From the NCBI GenBank assembly GCA_043732305.1, contig JAYTHU010000051.1, forward strand, positions 1 to 39,253: a stretch of DNA of 39,253 nt, written 5' to 3'. The DNA is from Oligoflexia bacterium (GTDB taxonomy: Bacteria > Bdellovibrionota > Bdellovibrionia > JABDDW01). Made by a program: the position numbers and the translations under genes. Shown piece after piece: positions 1 to 7,763 of this stretch; within the stretch, counting starts at the first letter, position 1; each line of letters starts with the position of its first letter. The notes under the pieces are model-generated. The model saw only the letters and a program-made list of their open reading frames with translations. It did not search any database and was not told where the DNA came from.

Positions 1-258
1 GGCCAGACGCTCACTCGTTTTATTGGCGCCTACGCTGAAGGCTCGATGGAGAAAGGGTCGTTCGGCGCAAATACCGGTGGGAGTGAAAACGGCGCGAGAA
101 ATGCCGTGTCTGAAACTGCAAAGGATCGAGCGGATGCCTGGGCTGCGGATCTTAAGAAAGAAAATAAGTGGATTGAGATCGAGGCCGACAGTGAATCGAT
201 TGCGATTCTCAATCAGTCCTTCGTGTTTCGAGATCCGGGGGCGGTGTATGGAAGATAA
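1..258 (+). CDS. C-terminal fragment of a TraB/TrbI/VirB10-like T4SS core protein (5' truncated by window edge)
   Basis: Frame 1 is open from base 1 (GQTLTRFIGAYAEGSMEKG...KWIEIEADSESIAILNQSFVF...). The pattern of helix, Gly-rich loop, helix and IEIEA beta strand resembles VirB10/TraB C-termini. Its stop overlaps the start of the coupling-protein gene. Confidence 0.5.
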   Translation, partial: GQTLTRFIGAYAEGSMEKGSFGANTGGSENGARNAVSETAKDRADAWAADLKKENKWIEIEADSESIAILNQSFVFRDPGAVYGR

Positions 259-1825
259 AAAAGTTTCTGGCGGAAGTACGGATCATTTGGTTGTGATCAG
301 TTGCCTGGTTTTCTTTTTGGTCAAACTTCTAGATAAATTTGAAAGATGGTGGGCGGTTTGGACTAAATCCCCCACTCATCAAGCTACACTTGGTTTAGAG
401 AGCGCTCTTGTAAGTTTTGTTCTTTATTATTATTTGACGTGCAAGCTCGAGATGTTTTCCGCCAAGAAAGTTCACGAGGCTTCGATCTTAGGACCAGCGC
501 ACAACGCAGTTTATTGCGGTGAGACTGTTAAAAGAGAAAGCGTCTTCATTAAAACTAAGCAACGAGCCATGCACACGCAAGTCATTGGCACAACCAATGC
601 TGGAAAGACAGAGTCGGTGATTCTTCCTTGGTCGATCCAAGACATTGAGCAAGGGCGCGGATTGATTCTCATCGACGGAAAATCAGACAGATCATTGCTT
701 GATAAAATTTGGGCTTACGTTGAGAAATCAGGAAGGCAAAAAGATTTTAGACTTTTTTCGCTCAGTAACATCGACGAGTCTTATCAATTCAATCCTTTGA
801 TTGGCGGATCGCCCGAAGAAGTTTCAGAGCGGGTTTTTAATTCATTTGATTTCGATAATCCCCACTACCGAAGCGTGCAATTTGAAGTTTTCTGCCAAGT
901 CATGAGAGTGTTCGACGCCGTCGGCGAAGTGCCGACATTTTTGAGGCTGCATCAAGCGATCACCACGCCCGCGACTCTCAAAGCAATGATGAAAGATCAT
1001 CCGCAAGATCCTTTGAAGACGTGGCTTGATCATTTTTCTTCGATTCCGCTGAAGGAAAGAATCGAGAGCACGAGCGGCTTAACTGCGGCGCTCAGCCATT
1101 TTGCCTTTGGCAGATCATCGTTACTTTTTAATACTGAACATCCGACGATTGATCTAGATGAGGCTCTCGCAAATAACCAGATTATTTATTTTCAATTGCC
1201 GGTGCTCCTCACTCCATTTTTGGGTAAGGCTTCCGGAAAGATGATTCTTCAGTGTTTGCAAAGTGCAATTGCCAATCGGCATCGAGGCCTCAACCGAGTG
1301 CTCCCGTTCTTTTCAGTTTTCTTAGACGATTTCACCGAATACCTTTATCCGGGATTTGTTTCGGTCTTAAATAAATCGAGAAGCGCCAACGTCGGAATTG
1401 TTTTTGCCCATCAAGCCTTGGGCGATATCAAAACTCTTGGTGACGCCATCGCCAATTCAATTCTAACGAACGCGAACATCAAAGTCTTCATGCGCGGCAA
1501 TGACCCGGACTCAGCAGAATATTTCTCGAAAGTCATCGGCACTGAAAAAGCGATCAAGTACACGGAGCGAACCAAGAAAAATATATTGAGGAATGAGGCG
1601 ACCGGCGATGCCTCCGCTCGCGAGGTTGAAGAATTTATTGTTCACCCCAATGTCTTCAAGAACCAGCTCGGTGTCGGTGAAGCGGTAATGATTGTTCCCC
1701 ACGAGAACGGGAGCAAGACAGTGAGTCTCAAATTTCGTAAATACGAGGATCTAGTTCCGCAGAACGCCGTTGCATACGTATATAAAGACCCAGCTGGGGG
1801 ACTGGGTATTCTCCAGCATAGATAA
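248..1825 (+). CDS. Type IV secretion coupling protein (TraD/VirD4/TrwB-like ATPase)
   Basis: Two N-terminal hydrophobic segments, HTQVIGTTNAGKT Walker A, LILIDGKSD, FNPL, VFLDDF Walker B, KSRSANVG..AHQ and AEYFSKVIG motifs. The ATG at 248 overlaps the upstream gene end and is preferred over the TTG at 23. Confidence 0.9.
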   Translation: MEDKKVSGGSTDHLVVISCLVFFLVKLLDKFERWWAVWTKSPTHQATLGLESALVSFVLYYYLTCKLEMFSAKKVHEASILGPAHNAVYCGETVKRESVFIKTKQRAMHTQVIGTTNAGKTESVILPWSIQDIEQGRGLILIDGKSDRSLLDKIWAYVEKSGRQKDFRLFSLSNIDESYQFNPLIGGSPEEVSERVFNSFDFDNPHYRSVQFEVFCQVMRVFDAVGEVPTFLRLHQAITTPATLKAMMKDHPQDPLKTWLDHFSSIPLKERIESTSGLTAALSHFAFGRSSLLFNTEHPTIDLDEALANNQIIYFQLPVLLTPFLGKASGKMILQCLQSAIANRHRGLNRVLPFFSVFLDDFTEYLYPGFVSVLNKSRSANVGIVFAHQALGDIKTLGDAIANSILTNANIKVFMRGNDPDSAEYFSKVIGTEKAIKYTERTKKNILRNEATGDASAREVEEFIVHPNVFKNQLGVGEAVMIVPHENGSKTVSLKFRKYEDLVPQNAVAYVYKDPAGGLGILQHR

Positions 1826-2195: not shown

Positions 2196-2648
2196 ATGAC
2201 TCACGAAAAAGCAAATTTCTATTATTTTGCGCTTATCCAAATGACTCTACTCTCACTCGTCTTGAGCGGCTGCGCCACAACCAACAAAAGCATTGGCCTT
2301 GGCGGTGCAATTGGCGCCGGCACTGGGGCCATCCTCGGTGGCATCGCTGACCCGGGTAAAGACGGCGAATTTAGAACTCGAAACGTCGTGATCGGCGCCG
2401 CTCTTGGTGGGATTGCAGGAATGGTGACAGGCTCAATTATCCACAAGCAAATGGAGGATCAAAAGAAAGAGGCCTTTTTAAAAGGCCAAGCTTCCGCTCC
2501 ACCCCCGCAGAACGGCGTCGCTCCCACTTTGACTCAAGCGAAAGTTCGAACCGATTGGATCGAAGGCCACGCCGTCGGCAACAGGTTTATCGACGGTCAC
2601 TTCGAGTATGTGATTGAAGAAATTCCGCGCTGGGATGTTGGCAAATGA
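2196..2648 (+). CDS. Lipoprotein with glycine zipper and TraV-like C-terminal motif
   Basis: LSGC lipobox; GxxxG repeats (GLGGAIGAGTGAILG, GAALGGIAG); C-terminal VRTDWIE...GHFEYVI...RW resembles the F-type TraV tail. Confidence 0.6.
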   Translation: MTHEKANFYYFALIQMTLLSLVLSGCATTNKSIGLGGAIGAGTGAILGGIADPGKDGEFRTRNVVIGAALGGIAGMVTGSIIHKQMEDQKKEAFLKGQASAPPPQNGVAPTLTQAKVRTDWIEGHAVGNRFIDGHFEYVIEEIPRWDVGK

Positions 2649-3379
2649 AGGCCTATGATCCAAGCGCAGAAATAGAACTCGCGGTCAGATGTGGCTTTTT
2701 ATCAAGATCAGTTTGGAACGATTTTTTCGCAAATGGCAAGCCGCGCTGGCGACGCTATGTTTGGAGTCGACTCATCAGTACCGGCTTGTTTAAGCCCCAC
2801 CAGTCAAGGCGAGCTTTTGATATAATCGTGCCTAACGAAGATCACCCACTGGTTAAAAAACTTTCCGGCGGCGAAATTTCTCACCCGCCACCCATTGCGC
2901 AAATTGACCACGATGAAATTATTGTCAGAAGTTTTTTATTATTAAAGAAACACCAAATAATTCTAAATGCGAAATTTGAGTCTGAACTTAAAAGAGAAGA
3001 TCTGCGGACGCAGCGACATTATAATCCAGCCGATAAGGTTAAGTATCCTGATCTGGTGATTGAAGTTGGCGCTCACGAACTCACAAAAAAAATTGCTATC
3101 GAGCTTGAACTTTCCCGCAAAGAACCAAAACGCTACAGGCAAATGATGAACACTTACATGACCTCAAAGCAATTCTCTTCGGTCATTTTTGTTACGAATC
3201 GAGAGACCATTGAAACCTCGATCGAGTCCGCAATTCGAGAAACTTTTTATCCACGATGGGAGCGCCCGGTAGGATTTGTTGAGCTTGCCGAATGGATTAA
3301 GAATCCGAGCGAAGCGGCGATTGTTGGTGATGGTAAAGTGACTACCTTGGCAATGCTTCGGATCGCTGCGAGTGCTTGA
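2645..3379 (+). CDS. MOB_C / Replic_Relax-like relaxase (wHTH + PD-(D/E)xK nuclease fold)
   Basis: PD-x16-ELELSRKEPKRY matches the MOB_C signature D-x(6-17)-E-x-E-(R/L)-x2-K-x3-R-Y. ATGA overlap with the upstream gene; close to a coupling protein gene. Confidence 0.75.
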   Translation: MKAYDPSAEIELAVRCGFLSRSVWNDFFANGKPRWRRYVWSRLISTGLFKPHQSRRAFDIIVPNEDHPLVKKLSGGEISHPPPIAQIDHDEIIVRSFLLLKKHQIILNAKFESELKREDLRTQRHYNPADKVKYPDLVIEVGAHELTKKIAIELELSRKEPKRYRQMMNTYMTSKQFSSVIFVTNRETIETSIESAIRETFYPRWERPVGFVELAEWIKNPSEAAIVGDGKVTTLAMLRIAASA

Positions 3380-3390
3380 TTTGGTTGGTG

Positions 3391-3423
3391 GTCGTGCCGC
3401 AACTCTGCCGGAGGCGGCACGAT
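3391..3423. repeat. GC-rich inverted repeat/hairpin directly after the relaxase gene
   Basis: TCGTGCCGC (3392-3400) and GCGGCACGA (3414-3422) are perfect 9-bp arms, with an inner CTC/GAG pair. Confidence 0.75.
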
Positions 3424-3479
3424 GTTTGAGATAATCGAAATTCTGAAAAATTATAAATCGAGAAAAATAACCAAGACTT

Positions 3480-3590
3480 ACCGACCGCCGCCCTCAAGTC
3501 ATTGTCCCCTGATCGCAGGAGACCACTCCCACCCTACGAATGGTTGGAAGTGGTCTCCTGCTGGTGACAAGACAGAGGGCGGTGGTGGGT
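3480..3590 (+). repeat. ~110-nt imperfect rod-like inverted repeat (candidate oriT, single-strand origin or structured RNA)
   Basis: Nested arms: 3484-3495/3575-3586 (12 bp, one G.T), 3498-3500/3571-3573, 3502-3506/3566-3570, and 3515-3527/3549-3561 (13 bp perfect). Confidence 0.85.
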
Positions 3591-3610
3591 GGATACAAAG
3601 GAAATAAAGT

Positions 3611-3994
3611 ATGAATGATAATCTAGGAATAAGAGAAGAGAATACAAATACAAATACGAAAACAGATGAGGTCTATCGAATAGCGGTGACGAGAGAGGCT
3701 GAAAAGGCTCTGAATGAATTGCTTGAAAAAGTGAATCACGGTTTTGAAGGCGGCAAAGTAAACCGGACAGAAATGGCAAGCTGGGCCTTAGGTCGAATGA
3801 GCAAAGACTTTGACGATGTCGCACTCCAGGATATACGCGCTGAGCATTTCGACGAGATTGCCGCATTAGAATCACTCTGGCGCAAAGCAAAGGAGACAGG
3901 TAAGGTTTCGAGCGAGATGAAGCTTCTTCTCCTTAGACAGACAGGCTTTGATGGCTCGGGTAAAAAAACCGGCAAATTAAAAATTGACAGATAG
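3611..3994 (+). CDS. Hypothetical protein, possible ribbon-helix-helix relaxosome accessory/regulator
   Basis: Alternating beta strand YRIAVT, then helix REAEKALNELLEK and helix NRTEMASWAL, which fits an RHH pattern. Lies beside the hairpin and the relaxase. Confidence 0.55.
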   Translation: MNDNLGIREENTNTNTKTDEVYRIAVTREAEKALNELLEKVNHGFEGGKVNRTEMASWALGRMSKDFDDVALQDIRAEHFDEIAALESLWRKAKETGKVSSEMKLLLLRQTGFDGSGKKTGKLKIDR

Positions 3995-4013
3995 TACGTC
4001 AATGACGTAACTT
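3984..4013 (+). promoter_or_regulatory. Sigma70-like promoter with overlapping palindromic operator
   Basis: TTGACA at 3984-3989, TAACTT at 4008-4013 (18-nt spacer), and perfect inverted repeat TACGTCA-A-TGACGTA at 3995-4009, just upstream of the HTH gene. Confidence 0.6.
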
Positions 4014-4031
4014 AAATTTGAAGGAAACGAA

Positions 4032-4259
4032 ATGAAACCAGAAGATATTAGGGCCACAAGAGAAAAATTTGAACTAGATCGCAACGAGTTTGCTGAAGTC
4101 TTCGGGCTGTCCTCATACAACAGCGTGTCCAACATTGAACTCGGGCACCGCAATCCAAATAAACTTTTGATTATTATTTTAAAAACTCTGAACGGACTTT
4201 CGAAGTCAAAAGCCTATGACCTAATTGCTTTAATGAGGAAAAATGCTGAGCGTAAATAA
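4032..4259 (+). CDS. Small XRE/Cro-family helix-turn-helix protein
   Basis: IRATREKFELDRNEFAEVFGLSSYNSVSNIELGHRNP is a typical HTH_XRE pattern; AAGGA RBS upstream. Confidence 0.85.
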   Translation: MKPEDIRATREKFELDRNEFAEVFGLSSYNSVSNIELGHRNPNKLLIIILKTLNGLSKSKAYDLIALMRKNAERK

Positions 4260-4485
4260 CTTCCACCTTTGGAATCAATTTATGGCCATGAAAAAAGAAA
4301 AAGATGAAAATCTTCATAATGACAATTTACCGAAAATAATTTTAGTGAAATCCGAAAACCCAAATATAGATCACCAAATAAAATCTGATGAGGTCCGTTA
4401 CTACCTGACTCAAATTATTCTTCTCGCGGATAAAATGGGTCGTCCAAGCAAGAAAGAATTTCCAGAGGTGCCTAGTGCCGCTTAA
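4243..4485 (+). CDS. Small hypothetical protein preceding the recombinase (candidate recombination directionality factor)
   Basis: ORF overlaps both neighbours; contains basic GRPSKK; true start may be ATG 4282 or 4288. Confidence 0.5.
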   Translation: MLSVNNFHLWNQFMAMKKEKDENLHNDNLPKIILVKSENPNIDHQIKSDEVRYYLTQIILLADKMGRPSKKEFPEVPSAA

Positions 4486-6304
4486 AATTGGTGCGTACAT
4501 TCGTGTCAGTACGGAAGAGCAAGCAAATATTGTTGAGGGCTCACTTGTCTCCCAACAACATCGCATGAACGCCTATGTTGATCTCAAAAATCATCAAGAC
4601 AAAACATGGGGAAAGGTCATCGAGTATTATATTGATGACGGTTTTTCTGCAAAAGATACCAAGAGACCTGCGTACCAAAAGATGGTTCGAGATTTGAGAA
4701 CTGGCAAAATCAATTTAATTTTGGTGACGGATCTGTCGCGTCTTTCCAGACACGTAAACGACTTCGGCAGACTTTTAGAAGAATTAGAATCATACAAAGC
4801 TAAATTTCTTTCGATCAAAGAGCAGTTTGATTCGAGCACTCCGGCTGGCGAGATGATGCTGAATAATATGATCAATCTTGCCCAGTTTGAAAGAAAACAA
4901 ACGTCTGAGAGAGTCTCTCTTAATTTCCATTCACGCGCTCTGAGAGGACTTTCTAACGGCGGTTGCAATATTCTTGGCTATGATCGTGATCCAACAAACA
5001 AAGGCAAACTCGTCGTCAATGAGGATGAAGCTCTGGTGGTAAGAAGAGTTTTTGAATTGTACTTGGATTCCCGAAGTTTAAAACAAACGGCAAGACGCTT
5101 GATGGATGAAAATCATTTGCCAAAAGTTCATTCTGAAAAACGCGCGAGACTTGCAAGAGAAGGCAAGTGGACGCTTTACTCAGTGAGATCCATCTTGAAA
5201 AATATGTCTTACGTTGGCCTTCGTGAAATCAATAAAAAGAATGAAAACGAAGATCAAGAGTACATTAAGCCTTGGCAGAAATACCAAGTTGTTAAAGCCG
5301 TCTGGCCGGCGATAGTTTCTAGCACGGTCTTTGAGGAGTCTCAAAAAGCTCTCGAGGAAGGCCGTCTTGTTGAAAATCAGCGACTCAGCACGGCCGAGAG
5401 CCGGGTGTTTTTGTTATCTGGAATAATAAGGTGTGAGGCTTGCGGTCGCGCACTGATGGGACAAAGTGCACATGGCTCAACCAAAGTTCATCGTTACTAT
5501 GGTCATTCAAAGTATGATTTGAATGGTAACGCCTGCACGGTAAAAAATGTTCGTGCCGATGATATTGAAACCGCCGTGCTCAACTATTTGGATGAGATTT
5601 TATTAGAATCTGGTCATCTCAACAGAATTGAAAATAACATCAAATCTTTTTTAATGGCGTCGAATGACGATCTAAAAAAGAACAAAGAGTTAAAAGAAAA
5701 ATCTCTCTTTGCGCTCGAGGCTGAAATCGAGTCTGCACTTAAGTTTCAGTTCTCATTAGACGCAAAATCCCAGACCGCTCAGCTCTTGGCTGAGAAGCTT
5801 GAGAAAATGGCCGAACAGAGAAAGCTTTTAAAGACAGCGGTAGAGTCAGTCAAAGACCGACTCAATGCTGGCGGGGAAGCAAAGGCTGCCAGATTAGATC
5901 TTGAAGACAGTCTTCAGAAGTTTAAACGCGGTTGGAAGAAAGCCAATCCCATCGTTCAAAAAAGATTCTTGAGAAGAATGATCGATTGTCTGATCTACAC
6001 GCCAAATGGGATCAAAGCTTACTATCATTCTGCCGTTGCCGAACAATCTCATGACCAATTGAAGACAACAAAAAAGGCCGGGGAGCAATCGCTCTCTGGC
6101 CTTTCTTTTTTGGGCATCAACCAGTCCCTTCGGAGGGCACTGGCTAGTTCGAGCTTAAGGGTTGGGAATTTGTCTGCGTTTGAAATTGGTGCGGCCGACT
6201 GGATTCGAACCAGTGACCCTCAGATTCGTAGTCTGATATTCTATCCAGCTGAACTACGGCCGCTAATGTCAAAAAATCTATTGAGATCTCAACGCATAGC
6301 ATGA
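4475..6304 (+). CDS. Large serine recombinase (integrase)
   Basis: YIRVST catalytic serine motif, DDGFSA..KRP, DLSRLSR, AQFER, LGYD recombinase domain, CEACG zinc ribbon and coiled coil. GTG start with GAGG RBS. The 3' end overlaps tRNA-Arg on the opposite strand. Confidence 0.95.
   Translation: MPLKIGAYIRVSTEEQANIVEGSLVSQQHRMNAYVDLKNHQDKTWGKVIEYYIDDGFSAKDTKRPAYQKMVRDLRTGKINLILVTDLSRLSRHVNDFGRLLEELESYKAKFLSIKEQFDSSTPAGEMMLNNMINLAQFERKQTSERVSLNFHSRALRGLSNGGCNILGYDRDPTNKGKLVVNEDEALVVRRVFELYLDSRSLKQTARRLMDENHLPKVHSEKRARLAREGKWTLYSVRSILKNMSYVGLREINKKNENEDQEYIKPWQKYQVVKAVWPAIVSSTVFEESQKALEEGRLVENQRLSTAESRVFLLSGIIRCEACGRALMGQSAHGSTKVHRYYGHSKYDLNGNACTVKNVRADDIETAVLNYLDEILLESGHLNRIENNIKSFLMASNDDLKKNKELKEKSLFALEAEIESALKFQFSLDAKSQTAQLLAEKLEKMAEQRKLLKTAVESVKDRLNAGGEAKAARLDLEDSLQKFKRGWKKANPIVQKRFLRRMIDCLIYTPNGIKAYYHSAVAEQSHDQLKTTKKAGEQSLSGLSFLGINQSLRRALASSSLRVGNLSAFEIGAADWIRTSDPQIRSLIFYPAELRPLMSKNLLRSQRIA
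6076..6111 (+). terminator. Intrinsic-terminator-like hairpin inside the recombinase ORF
   Basis: GGCCGGGGAGC-AATC-GCTCTCTGGCC (11 bp, two G.U on the + strand) followed by TTTCTTTTTT and preceded by an A-run, so it may be bidirectional. Confidence 0.6.
6187..6263 (-). tRNA. tRNA-Arg (anticodon ACG), 77 nt with encoded CCA
   Basis: Reverse complement GCGGCCGTAGTTCAGCTGGATAGAATATCAGACTACGAATCTGAGGGTCACTGGTTCGAATCCAGTCGGCCGCACCA has acceptor stem GCGGCCG/CGGCCGC, anticodon arm TCAGA-CTACGAA-TCTGA and T-loop TTCGAAT. Confidence 0.97.
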
Positions 6305-6380
6305 GCCAAAAGGGATTTGCAACTACTGATTCCTGCAGTTACCCTAAAGCCCAATTCAGTCAAAAATAAAAGGGGAAGCC

Positions 6381-7193
6381 ATGGATATGATTCATAGTTT
6401 GATACTTGGGGTAGTGCAGGGAATTGCCGAGTTTTTGCCTATTTCCAGTTCGGCTCACTTGATCATCATTCCTTGGCTCTTGGGTTGGTCTGAAGACGGT
6501 GGGCTGACTTTCGATGTGGCACTCCACTTTGGAACGCTCATAGCCATCATTGTGTACTTTCGTCATGAGTGGGTTCATCTGGTGAAAACCTTTTTCCGTG
6601 TGGGTTTCAAGGGAAAAACTAGCGACGAAAAAATGCCTTGGTTTTTGATTCTTGCGACCATTCCGGGGGCGATCTTTGGATTGCTGCTGGAGAAAAAGGC
6701 GGAAACGACTTTTAGAAATCCTGGAACCATCGGGGCAACCCTTGCCATTATGGGCGTGATGCTCTATTTGGCAGATCGTTTTTCCAAGCGATCGAAGAAT
6801 CTCGCTCAGATCACGTTACAGGACATACTCCTGATCGGATTTGCACAAGGGTTTGCACTCGTCCCGGGAGTATCACGAGCGGGCGTGACCATCATGGTGG
6901 GGCTTCTCTGTGGCCTCGATCGGGAATCTGCTGCGAAGTTTTCTTTTTGGCTCGCCATGCCCATAACAGCCGGAGCTTGTCTTTTAAAATTGAGACATCT
7001 TCACGGGGCAGATCTCACGCCAGAATTCCTCGTTGGAGTTGGTGCCGCCGCAGTGTTTGGTTTCTTGTCTATTGGTGGACTCATTCGGTTTTTGCAGAAA
7101 AGGTCCTACGGAGTGTTTGCATTTTATCGCGTGGTTGTTGGAATTGCGGTCATTGCACTTATTGCTTTGAAAATAAAAAACCCCAGCATTTGA
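6381..7193 (+). CDS. uppP: Undecaprenyl-diphosphate phosphatase (BacA/UppP)
   Basis: GVVQGIAEFLPISSSAHL and ALVPGVSRAG motifs; multiple TM helices. Confidence 0.97.
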   Translation: MDMIHSLILGVVQGIAEFLPISSSAHLIIIPWLLGWSEDGGLTFDVALHFGTLIAIIVYFRHEWVHLVKTFFRVGFKGKTSDEKMPWFLILATIPGAIFGLLLEKKAETTFRNPGTIGATLAIMGVMLYLADRFSKRSKNLAQITLQDILLIGFAQGFALVPGVSRAGVTIMVGLLCGLDRESAAKFSFWLAMPITAGACLLKLRHLHGADLTPEFLVGVGAAAVFGFLSIGGLIRFLQKRSYGVFAFYRVVVGIAVIALIALKIKNPSI

Positions 7194-7204
7194 CTGGGGC
7201 TTTT
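7175..7204. terminator. Likely bidirectional terminator between uppP and the convergent gene
   Basis: AAAAAA-CCCCAG-CATTTGA-CTGGGG-CTTTT. Confidence 0.55.
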
Positions 7205-7244
7205 CTAAAACTAATTTGGCGTACAGGAACTGCTCTTCAGAAAC

Positions 7245-7763
7245 TTAGAAAATCACGCCGACAACTAGGTTATCAACGTTAGGATAGGCCCCAATGTTGG
7301 TGGTAGCTTGGGTGAGGGTGGTGTTGTGTCGATAGAGTATTTCAATAGCAGCTTCTTTATTTCGATAAAGATCTATACCGATTCCGACACCTAACATGGG
7401 ACTAGCATCCGTGTAGCGGTTATTTCCACCGTAACCTACGTCAATTCGCAAAAATGGTGAAGTCTCAGCTCCGCGATCACCTTGAAACACTTTAATTGCT
7501 GCACCAAATTCAGTGATCAAAGTACTTCCAGCGCTGGACGTGTTTATAGCTGCATCGTAAAAATATTGAAGATTTACTCTTTCTGTCATTCCTAATTCAT
7601 AACCAAGCATCAAATCAAATTTTGTGCCGCCAGTTCCGATAAGGTCACTTGAAAAGGCTGGGCCTACGCCAGCATACCAATGTTTCTCTTTTTTCATGTC
7701 ATCGGCTTTTGCAAAACCGGCGAAGGAAATAAAGATTAACAAAACTAATACTAATCGGGTCAT
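7245..7763 (-). CDS. Small outer-membrane beta-barrel protein
   Basis: Signal peptide (AKA cleavage), amphipathic beta strands, C-terminal Phe (VVGVIF); AAGGAG RBS. Confidence 0.75.
   Translation of the reverse strand: MTRLVLVLLIFISFAGFAKADDMKKEKHWYAGVGPAFSSDLIGTGGTKFDLMLGYELGMTERVNLQYFYDAAINTSSAGSTLITEFGAAIKVFQGDRGAETSPFLRIDVGYGGNNRYTDASPMLGVGIGIDLYRNKEAAIEILYRHNTTLTQATTNIGAYPNVDNLVVGVIF

Follow-up and report, generated by a model that had tools for sequence, protein, structure and literature searches.

The gene of a large serine recombinase (integrase) in the stretch of DNA analysed here, hereafter the window (39,253 nt, one whole contig), has a reading frame that crosses its probable attachment site and continues through an antisense tRNA-Arg gene, which raises the question of whether the C-terminus of the enzyme depends on the integration state of its element. 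Comparison with related islands leads us to an answer that we regard as probable: the integrase gene spans the predicted crossover, the enzyme of the inserted copy finishes with 37 incidental residues, and the circle would join the gene to an HTH and a second Recombinase domain (RD), as in relatives, likely giving an integration-biased long enzyme and an excision-competent short one. The features of the locus are collected in Table 1.

Table 1. Features of the window, with positions counted from its first letter and the basis of each assignment.
Feature	Position	Strand	Basis
VirD4/TraD-like coupling protein	23..1825	+	Pfam; homologue in 13/18 islands
127-aa conserved module gene, no family	3611..3994	+	homologue in 16/18 islands
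XRE-type HTH regulator of the integration module	4032..4259	+	Pfam; homologue in 11/18 islands
80-aa gene overlapping the integrase start, candidate recombination directionality factor	4243..4485	+	motif survey, complex score
Integrase (large serine recombinase) as encoded when integrated, 609 aa	4475..6304	+	Pfam domains, 839 homologues
Integrase constant part, residues 1-572	4475..6190	+	conservation by region
Terminator-like hairpin inside the integrase ORF	6073..6104		hairpin prediction; comparison of relatives
Element-side att arm inside the integrase gene	6165..6190	+	arm profile
tRNA-Arg(ACG), integration target	6187..6263	-	ARAGORN
Predicted crossover dinucleotide, tRNA nt 72/71, codon 573	6191..6192	+	inverted symmetry in relatives; homology here
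Integrated-state tail, 37 aa, incidental	6191..6304	+	length spread and lack of conservation
Host att arm, antisense acceptor/T arm	6193..6215	+	best shift 5
bacA/uppP, host flank outside the element	6381..7193	+	Pfam; linkage in same-family genomes

As the initial annotation had stated, the integrase frame is open through the attachment site and the whole antisense tRNA, its first in-frame stop being the TGA at 6302-6304. The encoded protein has the domain set of the large serine recombinases, with Pfam matches to Resolvase, Recombinase and Zn ribbon, a coiled coil and an intact Ser12 in the catalytic motif. Its constant part carries the catalytic domain, the RD and the zinc domain/coiled coil up to approximately residue 520, followed by a poorly conserved linker; I571 and G572 fall on the anti-CCA of tRNA-Arg(ACG), and residues 573-609 are encoded by antisense tRNA and host DNA. 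This tRNA gene is the only one with an ACG anticodon called for arginine in the assembly, and bacA, 3' of it on the plus strand, is linked to it in three of five same-family genomes and is therefore host DNA. The same layout is found at tRNA-Arg(TCG) in the two closest named records, both Bdellovibrionales (89% and 74% identity). Within the reach of the reads, an assembly error was rejected: positions 3400-7400 are covered with 0 differences by a single 19,967-nt contig of run X1, a run from which the window DNA may itself derive.

A search of 390 genomes of the class found the integrase in 108 (E<=1e-80), and a search of 401 genomes sampled from the phylum found it in 39 (E<=1e-120). The regions compared below were taken for having integrase matches on long contigs, which makes them a non-random set of mutually related regions, and all the complete islands examined come from outside the window's closest subfamily (>60% identity). 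These regions hold 65 integrase matches, 47 of which (in 36 genomes) adjoin a called tRNA or tmRNA, with 13 RNA types represented; the anti-CCA is read in the G frame in 44 of them, in the V frame in two and in the W frame in one. The other 18 matches comprise seven tandem fusions, two out-of-frame tandem joins, four that read into tRNA-like sequence uncalled by ARAGORN, one broken remnant and four further cases. A survey for frames without a stop before the tRNA, proposed at the outset, gave a uniform result, since all 47 relatives that adjoin a called RNA of either kind are open across the RNA 3' end, which rules out a private stop loss in the window. Crossing of the entire tRNA, true of the window copy, is shared by only 16 of the 42 relatives at tRNA sites. 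No relative was found in the viral contigs searched, a first metagenome scan returned nothing, and the single close locus from a second scan lacked a tail within 10 kb. The genome of the window itself also holds the 3' remnant of a second integrase of the family (G000:C38:100-457, L236), which reads into antisense tRNA-Arg(TCT).

The position of the crossover was derived from the relatives. In 18 rebuilt attP sites the inverted symmetry is 0.60 at positions 5-6 of the anti-CCA, compared with 0.18-0.31 at 15 other centres, and the tRNA arm best matches both attP arms at a shift of 5 (0.42 and 0.38 versus 0.15-0.30), the T-loop motif lying 14-17 bp from the centre and the attP motif 19-22 bp. 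These 18 relatives thus display the attachment-site geometry of large serine recombinases, a 2-bp symmetric centre with the outer motif about 5 bp nearer in attB, and their rebuilt sites match the attP symmetry and 5-bp attP/attB shift of the canonical enzymes described in passages of PMC11722253. By homology we infer a crossover at codon 573 of the window copy; the claim that it lies inside the integrase gene is supported by the attP symmetry and by circle reconstruction in relatives. Here the element-side arm supplies the discriminator and CCA of the tRNA and has an outer motif at 6169-6172 with three of four consensus bases, and the T-loop motif (6206-6209) is closer to the centre by 5 bp than are the attP motifs. 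We infer that the conserved tRNA T-loop serves as the outer (DBD2) motif of attB, which would explain how one family can target at least 12 tRNA types and tmRNA; the host arm of attB shows no conservation beyond approximately 7 bp. No long repeat of the tRNA 3' end was found in the genome, as expected with a repeat of 6-9 bp, and the reads showed neither an excised circle nor an attP joint. In run X2, a 41-nt contig (depth 4; window 6168-6197) departs from the window after 6197 at the element end and continues into a different tRNA-Arg-like allele, not into a tail; the junction is in keeping with a crossover near the tRNA 3' end. The same contig hints at a second insertion site within the population.

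What the integrase would meet on the circle can be read from the opposite, far ends of the related islands. Of the 47, 20 have a conserved upstream ORF that begins at a copy of the last 6-9 bases of the RNA (in one joined island the repeat has only 3 bases and the discriminator base differs). Reconstruction of the sites and translation from the circle, as the initial annotation had advised, was carried out in these relatives, and in silico joining of both ends gave an open circle ORF of 692-764 aa in 18 of the 20, the two failures being G110:C2, which has lost the junction, and G064:C1, whose tail contains a frameshift. Extending eight regions added seven tails, all in the integrase frame and six with the RNA called, and all six of these circles were open too. 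The predicted crossover of the relatives thus falls within the ORF, and their reconstructed circles bear out that integrated and excised forms would encode different C-termini. Overall, the tail is in frame with the integrase of its own island in 24 of 26 islands, and the frames co-vary: both are W in G316:C1, and both are V in G171:C81 as well as in G075:C91, whose RNA is uncalled; these three are the only pairs outside the G frame. Tandem arrays, in which an older integrase meets the tail of a newer island, provide seven in-frame natural fusions and three out-of-frame joins, the latter indicating, as a rough control, that frame matching is not automatic. One natural fusion (L028, 753 aa) carries two Recombinase matches and an HTH, and two others, P0157 (HTH and RD) and L003, belong to the window's own subfamily.

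The tail is about 165 aa long, with an HTH in 16 of 19 cases and a Pfam Recombinase domain in 18 of 19, and its domains weakly match resolvase HTHs and the RD of the A118 integrase. Judging from these reconstructions, excision would swap the tRNA-read tail of related islands for this conserved HTH and second Recombinase domain. A second, shorter type of tail (77-83 aa), with the HTH only, occurs in L003 (5510-5761, 83 aa) and L154, and a homologue search with the L003 version scored nothing. Separately, a small hydrophobic ORF, mostly of one family (e.g. L056 after 5386), follows the tail stop within about 25 nt in 14 of 18 islands, and excision could couple it to integrase translation. In G075:C91 (L076-L077, L098-L099) five mixed-frame tails lie within 17 kb upstream of one integrase, a stack of repeated insertion and decay at a single site.

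The window ends at the VirD4/TraD-like gene, with the far end of its island off the contig; read from this gene, the island is a candidate conjugative element. Further genes are common to it and to related islands on C235 and C227, and a 244-aa gene without a Pfam family (2645-3379, between virD4 and the integrase) has a homologue in 12 of 18 islands. Motif and HMM searches of the genome for the island's own far end returned only decayed or truncated tails, and there were no exact contig-end overlaps of 15-149 nt. Because this end is unassembled, the switch seen in the family is extended to the window copy by homology. The five tail remnants of the genome (on C165, C164, C120, C147 and C31) are scars of former islands. 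The closest, on C165, is 42% identical to the L004 tail and is truncated both by the end of its contig and by an IS21 element, whose istB/istA genes follow it. With the far end unassembled and this candidate tail interrupted by IS21, the window copy may no longer rebuild the long form. A copy locked or crippled in this way, whose excision no longer yields the long enzyme, would be compatible with the family mechanism, and we consider it possible, with less than even chances: the C165 fragment fits the tail of the window's subfamily best (45 bits versus at most 38 for 18 others), but it has no link to the window contig (C51) and may belong to another island, the genome contains the other decayed tails, and a second integrase has left its remnant on C38. 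An identical stretch at the contig ends of C20, C72, C124 and C211 of the same genome is probably the end of a multicopy IS.

The 80-aa gene, a candidate for a recombination directionality factor (RDF), is found at 54 of 95 integrase starts under a strict motif filter; the window protein has an RGRP motif and a C-terminal AA, and 45 of the 54 end in an Ala-type tag, which we take to resemble a ClpXP degron. It has no Pfam match and no usable Atlas match, and the 127-aa module gene no Pfam match above the cut-off. The complex predicted, from author-made alignments, for integrase residues 160-525 and the 80-aa protein scored 0.71, against 0.00 for the best control, with contacts agreeing in at least 86% and a partner pLDDT of at least 59; the mark set for this score was reached by 116 of 157 solved pairs and 2 of 215 mismatched pairs. 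The interface comprises integrase residues 359-393 and 479-521 and includes paired strands at 513-517, so that the protein is predicted to bind the DBD2/coiled-coil junction as a directionality factor would. According to passages of PMC12286644, known RDFs bind this junction, mostly adding a strand, and 4 of 11 tested virtual-pulldown matches proved false. The interface predicted here is at the RDF site so described. In a structure model of one natural fusion of 740 aa (mean pLDDT 84.8), the core is followed by the linker, a strand at the conserved QPHDxI motif, the HTH and the second RD; the linker holding the crossover (522-587) is disordered, with pLDDT below 50. The QPHD segment is a strand in the fusion model (pLDDT 71-74) and a coil in a tail-only model (55-63), the two tails coming from different islands.

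We propose that the integrated element would produce a short integrase ending in tRNA-read filler and likely competent for excision, and that excision would join the gene in frame to the far-end tail, making a long integrase likely biased to integration. The 80-aa protein is predicted to bind the DBD2/coiled-coil junction like a directionality factor; on the circle, the QPHDxI strand would fill its site in cis, the HTH and RD would add DNA binding, and the enzyme would ignore the factor. This cis block, based on the structure models, we judge about evenly balanced; it draws encouragement from a remark in the passages of PMC12286644 on SCCmec recombinases, whose additional strands at the C-terminus could block the RDF site. 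The complete scheme would be a self-rewriting directionality switch in which the tail strand plugs the RDF site while the HTH and RD bind DNA, circles only integrate, inserted copies respond to the RDF, and the universal T-loop is read as attB, giving access to many tRNAs, and to tmRNA, with a required identity of 2 bp; in this full form we put it forward tentatively, as less likely than not.

Rather unlikely, in our judgement, is a real fusion whose tail is only an accessory DNA-binding module, helping to engage an attB with one conserved half or acting as an autoregulator of the circle, with direction set by the 80-aa factor alone. Such a role would fit the DNA-binding folds of both tail domains, the lack of conservation in the host arm of attB past about 7 bp, the presence of a conventional RDF candidate beside the integrase and the linker between core and tail, which is long and disordered in the fusion model; excision, however, must engage the same unconserved half of attB without the tail, and a conserved QPHDxI strand, ordered only in the fusion model, precedes the DNA-binding folds.

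The proposed fusion also has to be weighed against another reading, in which the far-end ORF is translated from a start of its own as a separate small protein and the agreement of its frame with the integrase is a relic. Databases do annotate such ORFs as stand-alone "recombinase family proteins" and a start-like codon precedes the HTH in 9 of 18 tails, but the start is not conserved: the other 9 of the 18 have no ATG, GTG or TTG there, ATG is found in 3 of 18 at unlike places, and, among the best 150 database matches, 113 are full tails, whose gene-caller starts spread from -57 to +154. The tail is under purifying selection, with dN/dS of 0.09-0.22 in seven of eight pairs (non-independent; one saturated), and selection also acts upstream of the HTH, where dN/dS is 0.22-0.48. 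Given, in addition, that the tail frame follows the cognate integrase in all three frames, a separate protein is improbable.

The initial annotation had placed the weight on the residues encoded by the tRNA, which turn out to be the unconserved part. In relatives the integrated-state tail is 3-97 codons long (median 12), and its column identity is 0.14, versus 0.71 in the catalytic domain. What the family conserves is the crossing of the RNA 3' end and not the sequence read beyond it; the tRNA-read tail is incidental filler, and the selected part is the HTH and Recombinase domain that the circle would add. In the codons of the linker lies the terminator-like hairpin, with an A-run before and a T-run after it. 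In 17 of 18 islands the hairpin is stronger than that of a control stretch, and it is likely an element-borne terminator for the tRNA. Such a hairpin would end tRNA read-through approximately 85 nt past the CCA, which weakens the case for convergent tRNA transcription silencing the integrase and leaves that idea doubtful. A nonstop/tmRNA-tagging model via the same hairpin was dropped, as most relatives, by eye, have no plus-strand T-run after it. That the tRNA-encoded tail is itself the switch, as a degron like that of BPs, or that convergent tRNA transcription silences the gene, is therefore very improbable, even though this tail exists only when integrated, the window ORF ends in Ile-Ala and the two genes are convergent, in view of the unconserved tails of variable length and of the hairpin that limits read-through into the integrase.

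An attachment site inside an integrase gene has already been published for DsiB, the rumA ICEs, Mx8 and the SSV1 type, all of which are nearer to the window family than mycobacteriophage BPs, the parallel drawn at first. In BPs integration likewise rewrites a C-terminus, through a removable ssrA-like degradation tag (PMC4557955), but that of the repressor and with no domain gained, whereas in the window family att lies in the integrase and the circle form gains domains. DsiB, from the ssrA islands of Dehalococcoides, is also a large serine recombinase with a gene end overlapping att: in the passages available of PMC3146451, its 3' end always overlaps the att site/attL, its stop lies outside the island and islands occur in tandem, and the authors suggest that the gene may be whole only in the circular state, or when next to an island that bears the 3' fragment. 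These passages place its crossover in the tmRNA T-loop, with one target and a 20-bp repeat, and mention no conserved 3' domain; the window family differs in crossing over at nt 72/71, with a 6-9-bp repeat, at least 13 RNA targets and a defined HTH and RD tail. Neither the ssrA specificity of those islands nor their dsiA-parB-mom module is found in the window, where the target is tRNA-Arg and the upstream genes are XRE, 80-aa, 127-aa and VirD4.

The serine integrases of streptococcal rumA ICEs also have att inside the gene and a C-terminus that changes on integration; in the passages of PMC4701971 their target is protein-coding, the 3' ends are exchanged reciprocally and no added DNA-binding domains are mentioned. 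The same source summarises myxophage Mx8, with attP in int, where integration swaps a 112-residue C-terminus for 13 residues and lowers activity; this enzyme is a tyrosine recombinase and its tail is unrelated. The "suicidal" integrases of SSV1/pT26-2, as presented in passages of PMC7253208, share with the window family att in their own ORF, an orientation antiparallel to tRNA 3' ends, many tRNA targets and the rebuilding of hybrid genes by tandem insertion. These archaeal enzymes are tyrosine recombinases that become split into two pieces, both inactive, the catalytic residue being in int(C), whereas the window enzyme is of the serine family and keeps its catalytic domain, RD and zinc domain together in the single integrated ORF. 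Canonical LSR/RDF systems (SPbeta, A118/LI) share with the window family the domain order, the 5-bp attP/attB shift and a small RDF at the DBD2/coiled-coil junction, in the window family a predicted one; in the passages of PMC11722253 and PMC12286644, they differ in having the same protein in both states and no second RD. The window family works most like Mx8 and DsiB and belongs to none of the att-in-gene families compared. Our literature search, which covered open-access papers, found no paper on the HTH and RD tail, the nt 72/71 crossover or the 80-aa RDF candidate; "tRNA" is absent from the main text of an LSR survey preprint (10.1101/2021.11.05.467528), and the passages available of PMC12884075 do not mention split integrases.

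Serine integrases are core tools of genome engineering, and how their direction is controlled is actively studied. The informative tail of these enzymes is the one gained on excision and not the one read from the tRNA, and integrases copied from chromosomes may thus be the truncated form. The window family offers enzymes with predictable tRNA and tmRNA targets together with a candidate RDF family, and through it the 2011 idea on the missing 3' fragment of DsiB becomes testable. If true, the gain of two DNA-binding domains only on the circle would be a new coupling of recombination state to enzyme form.
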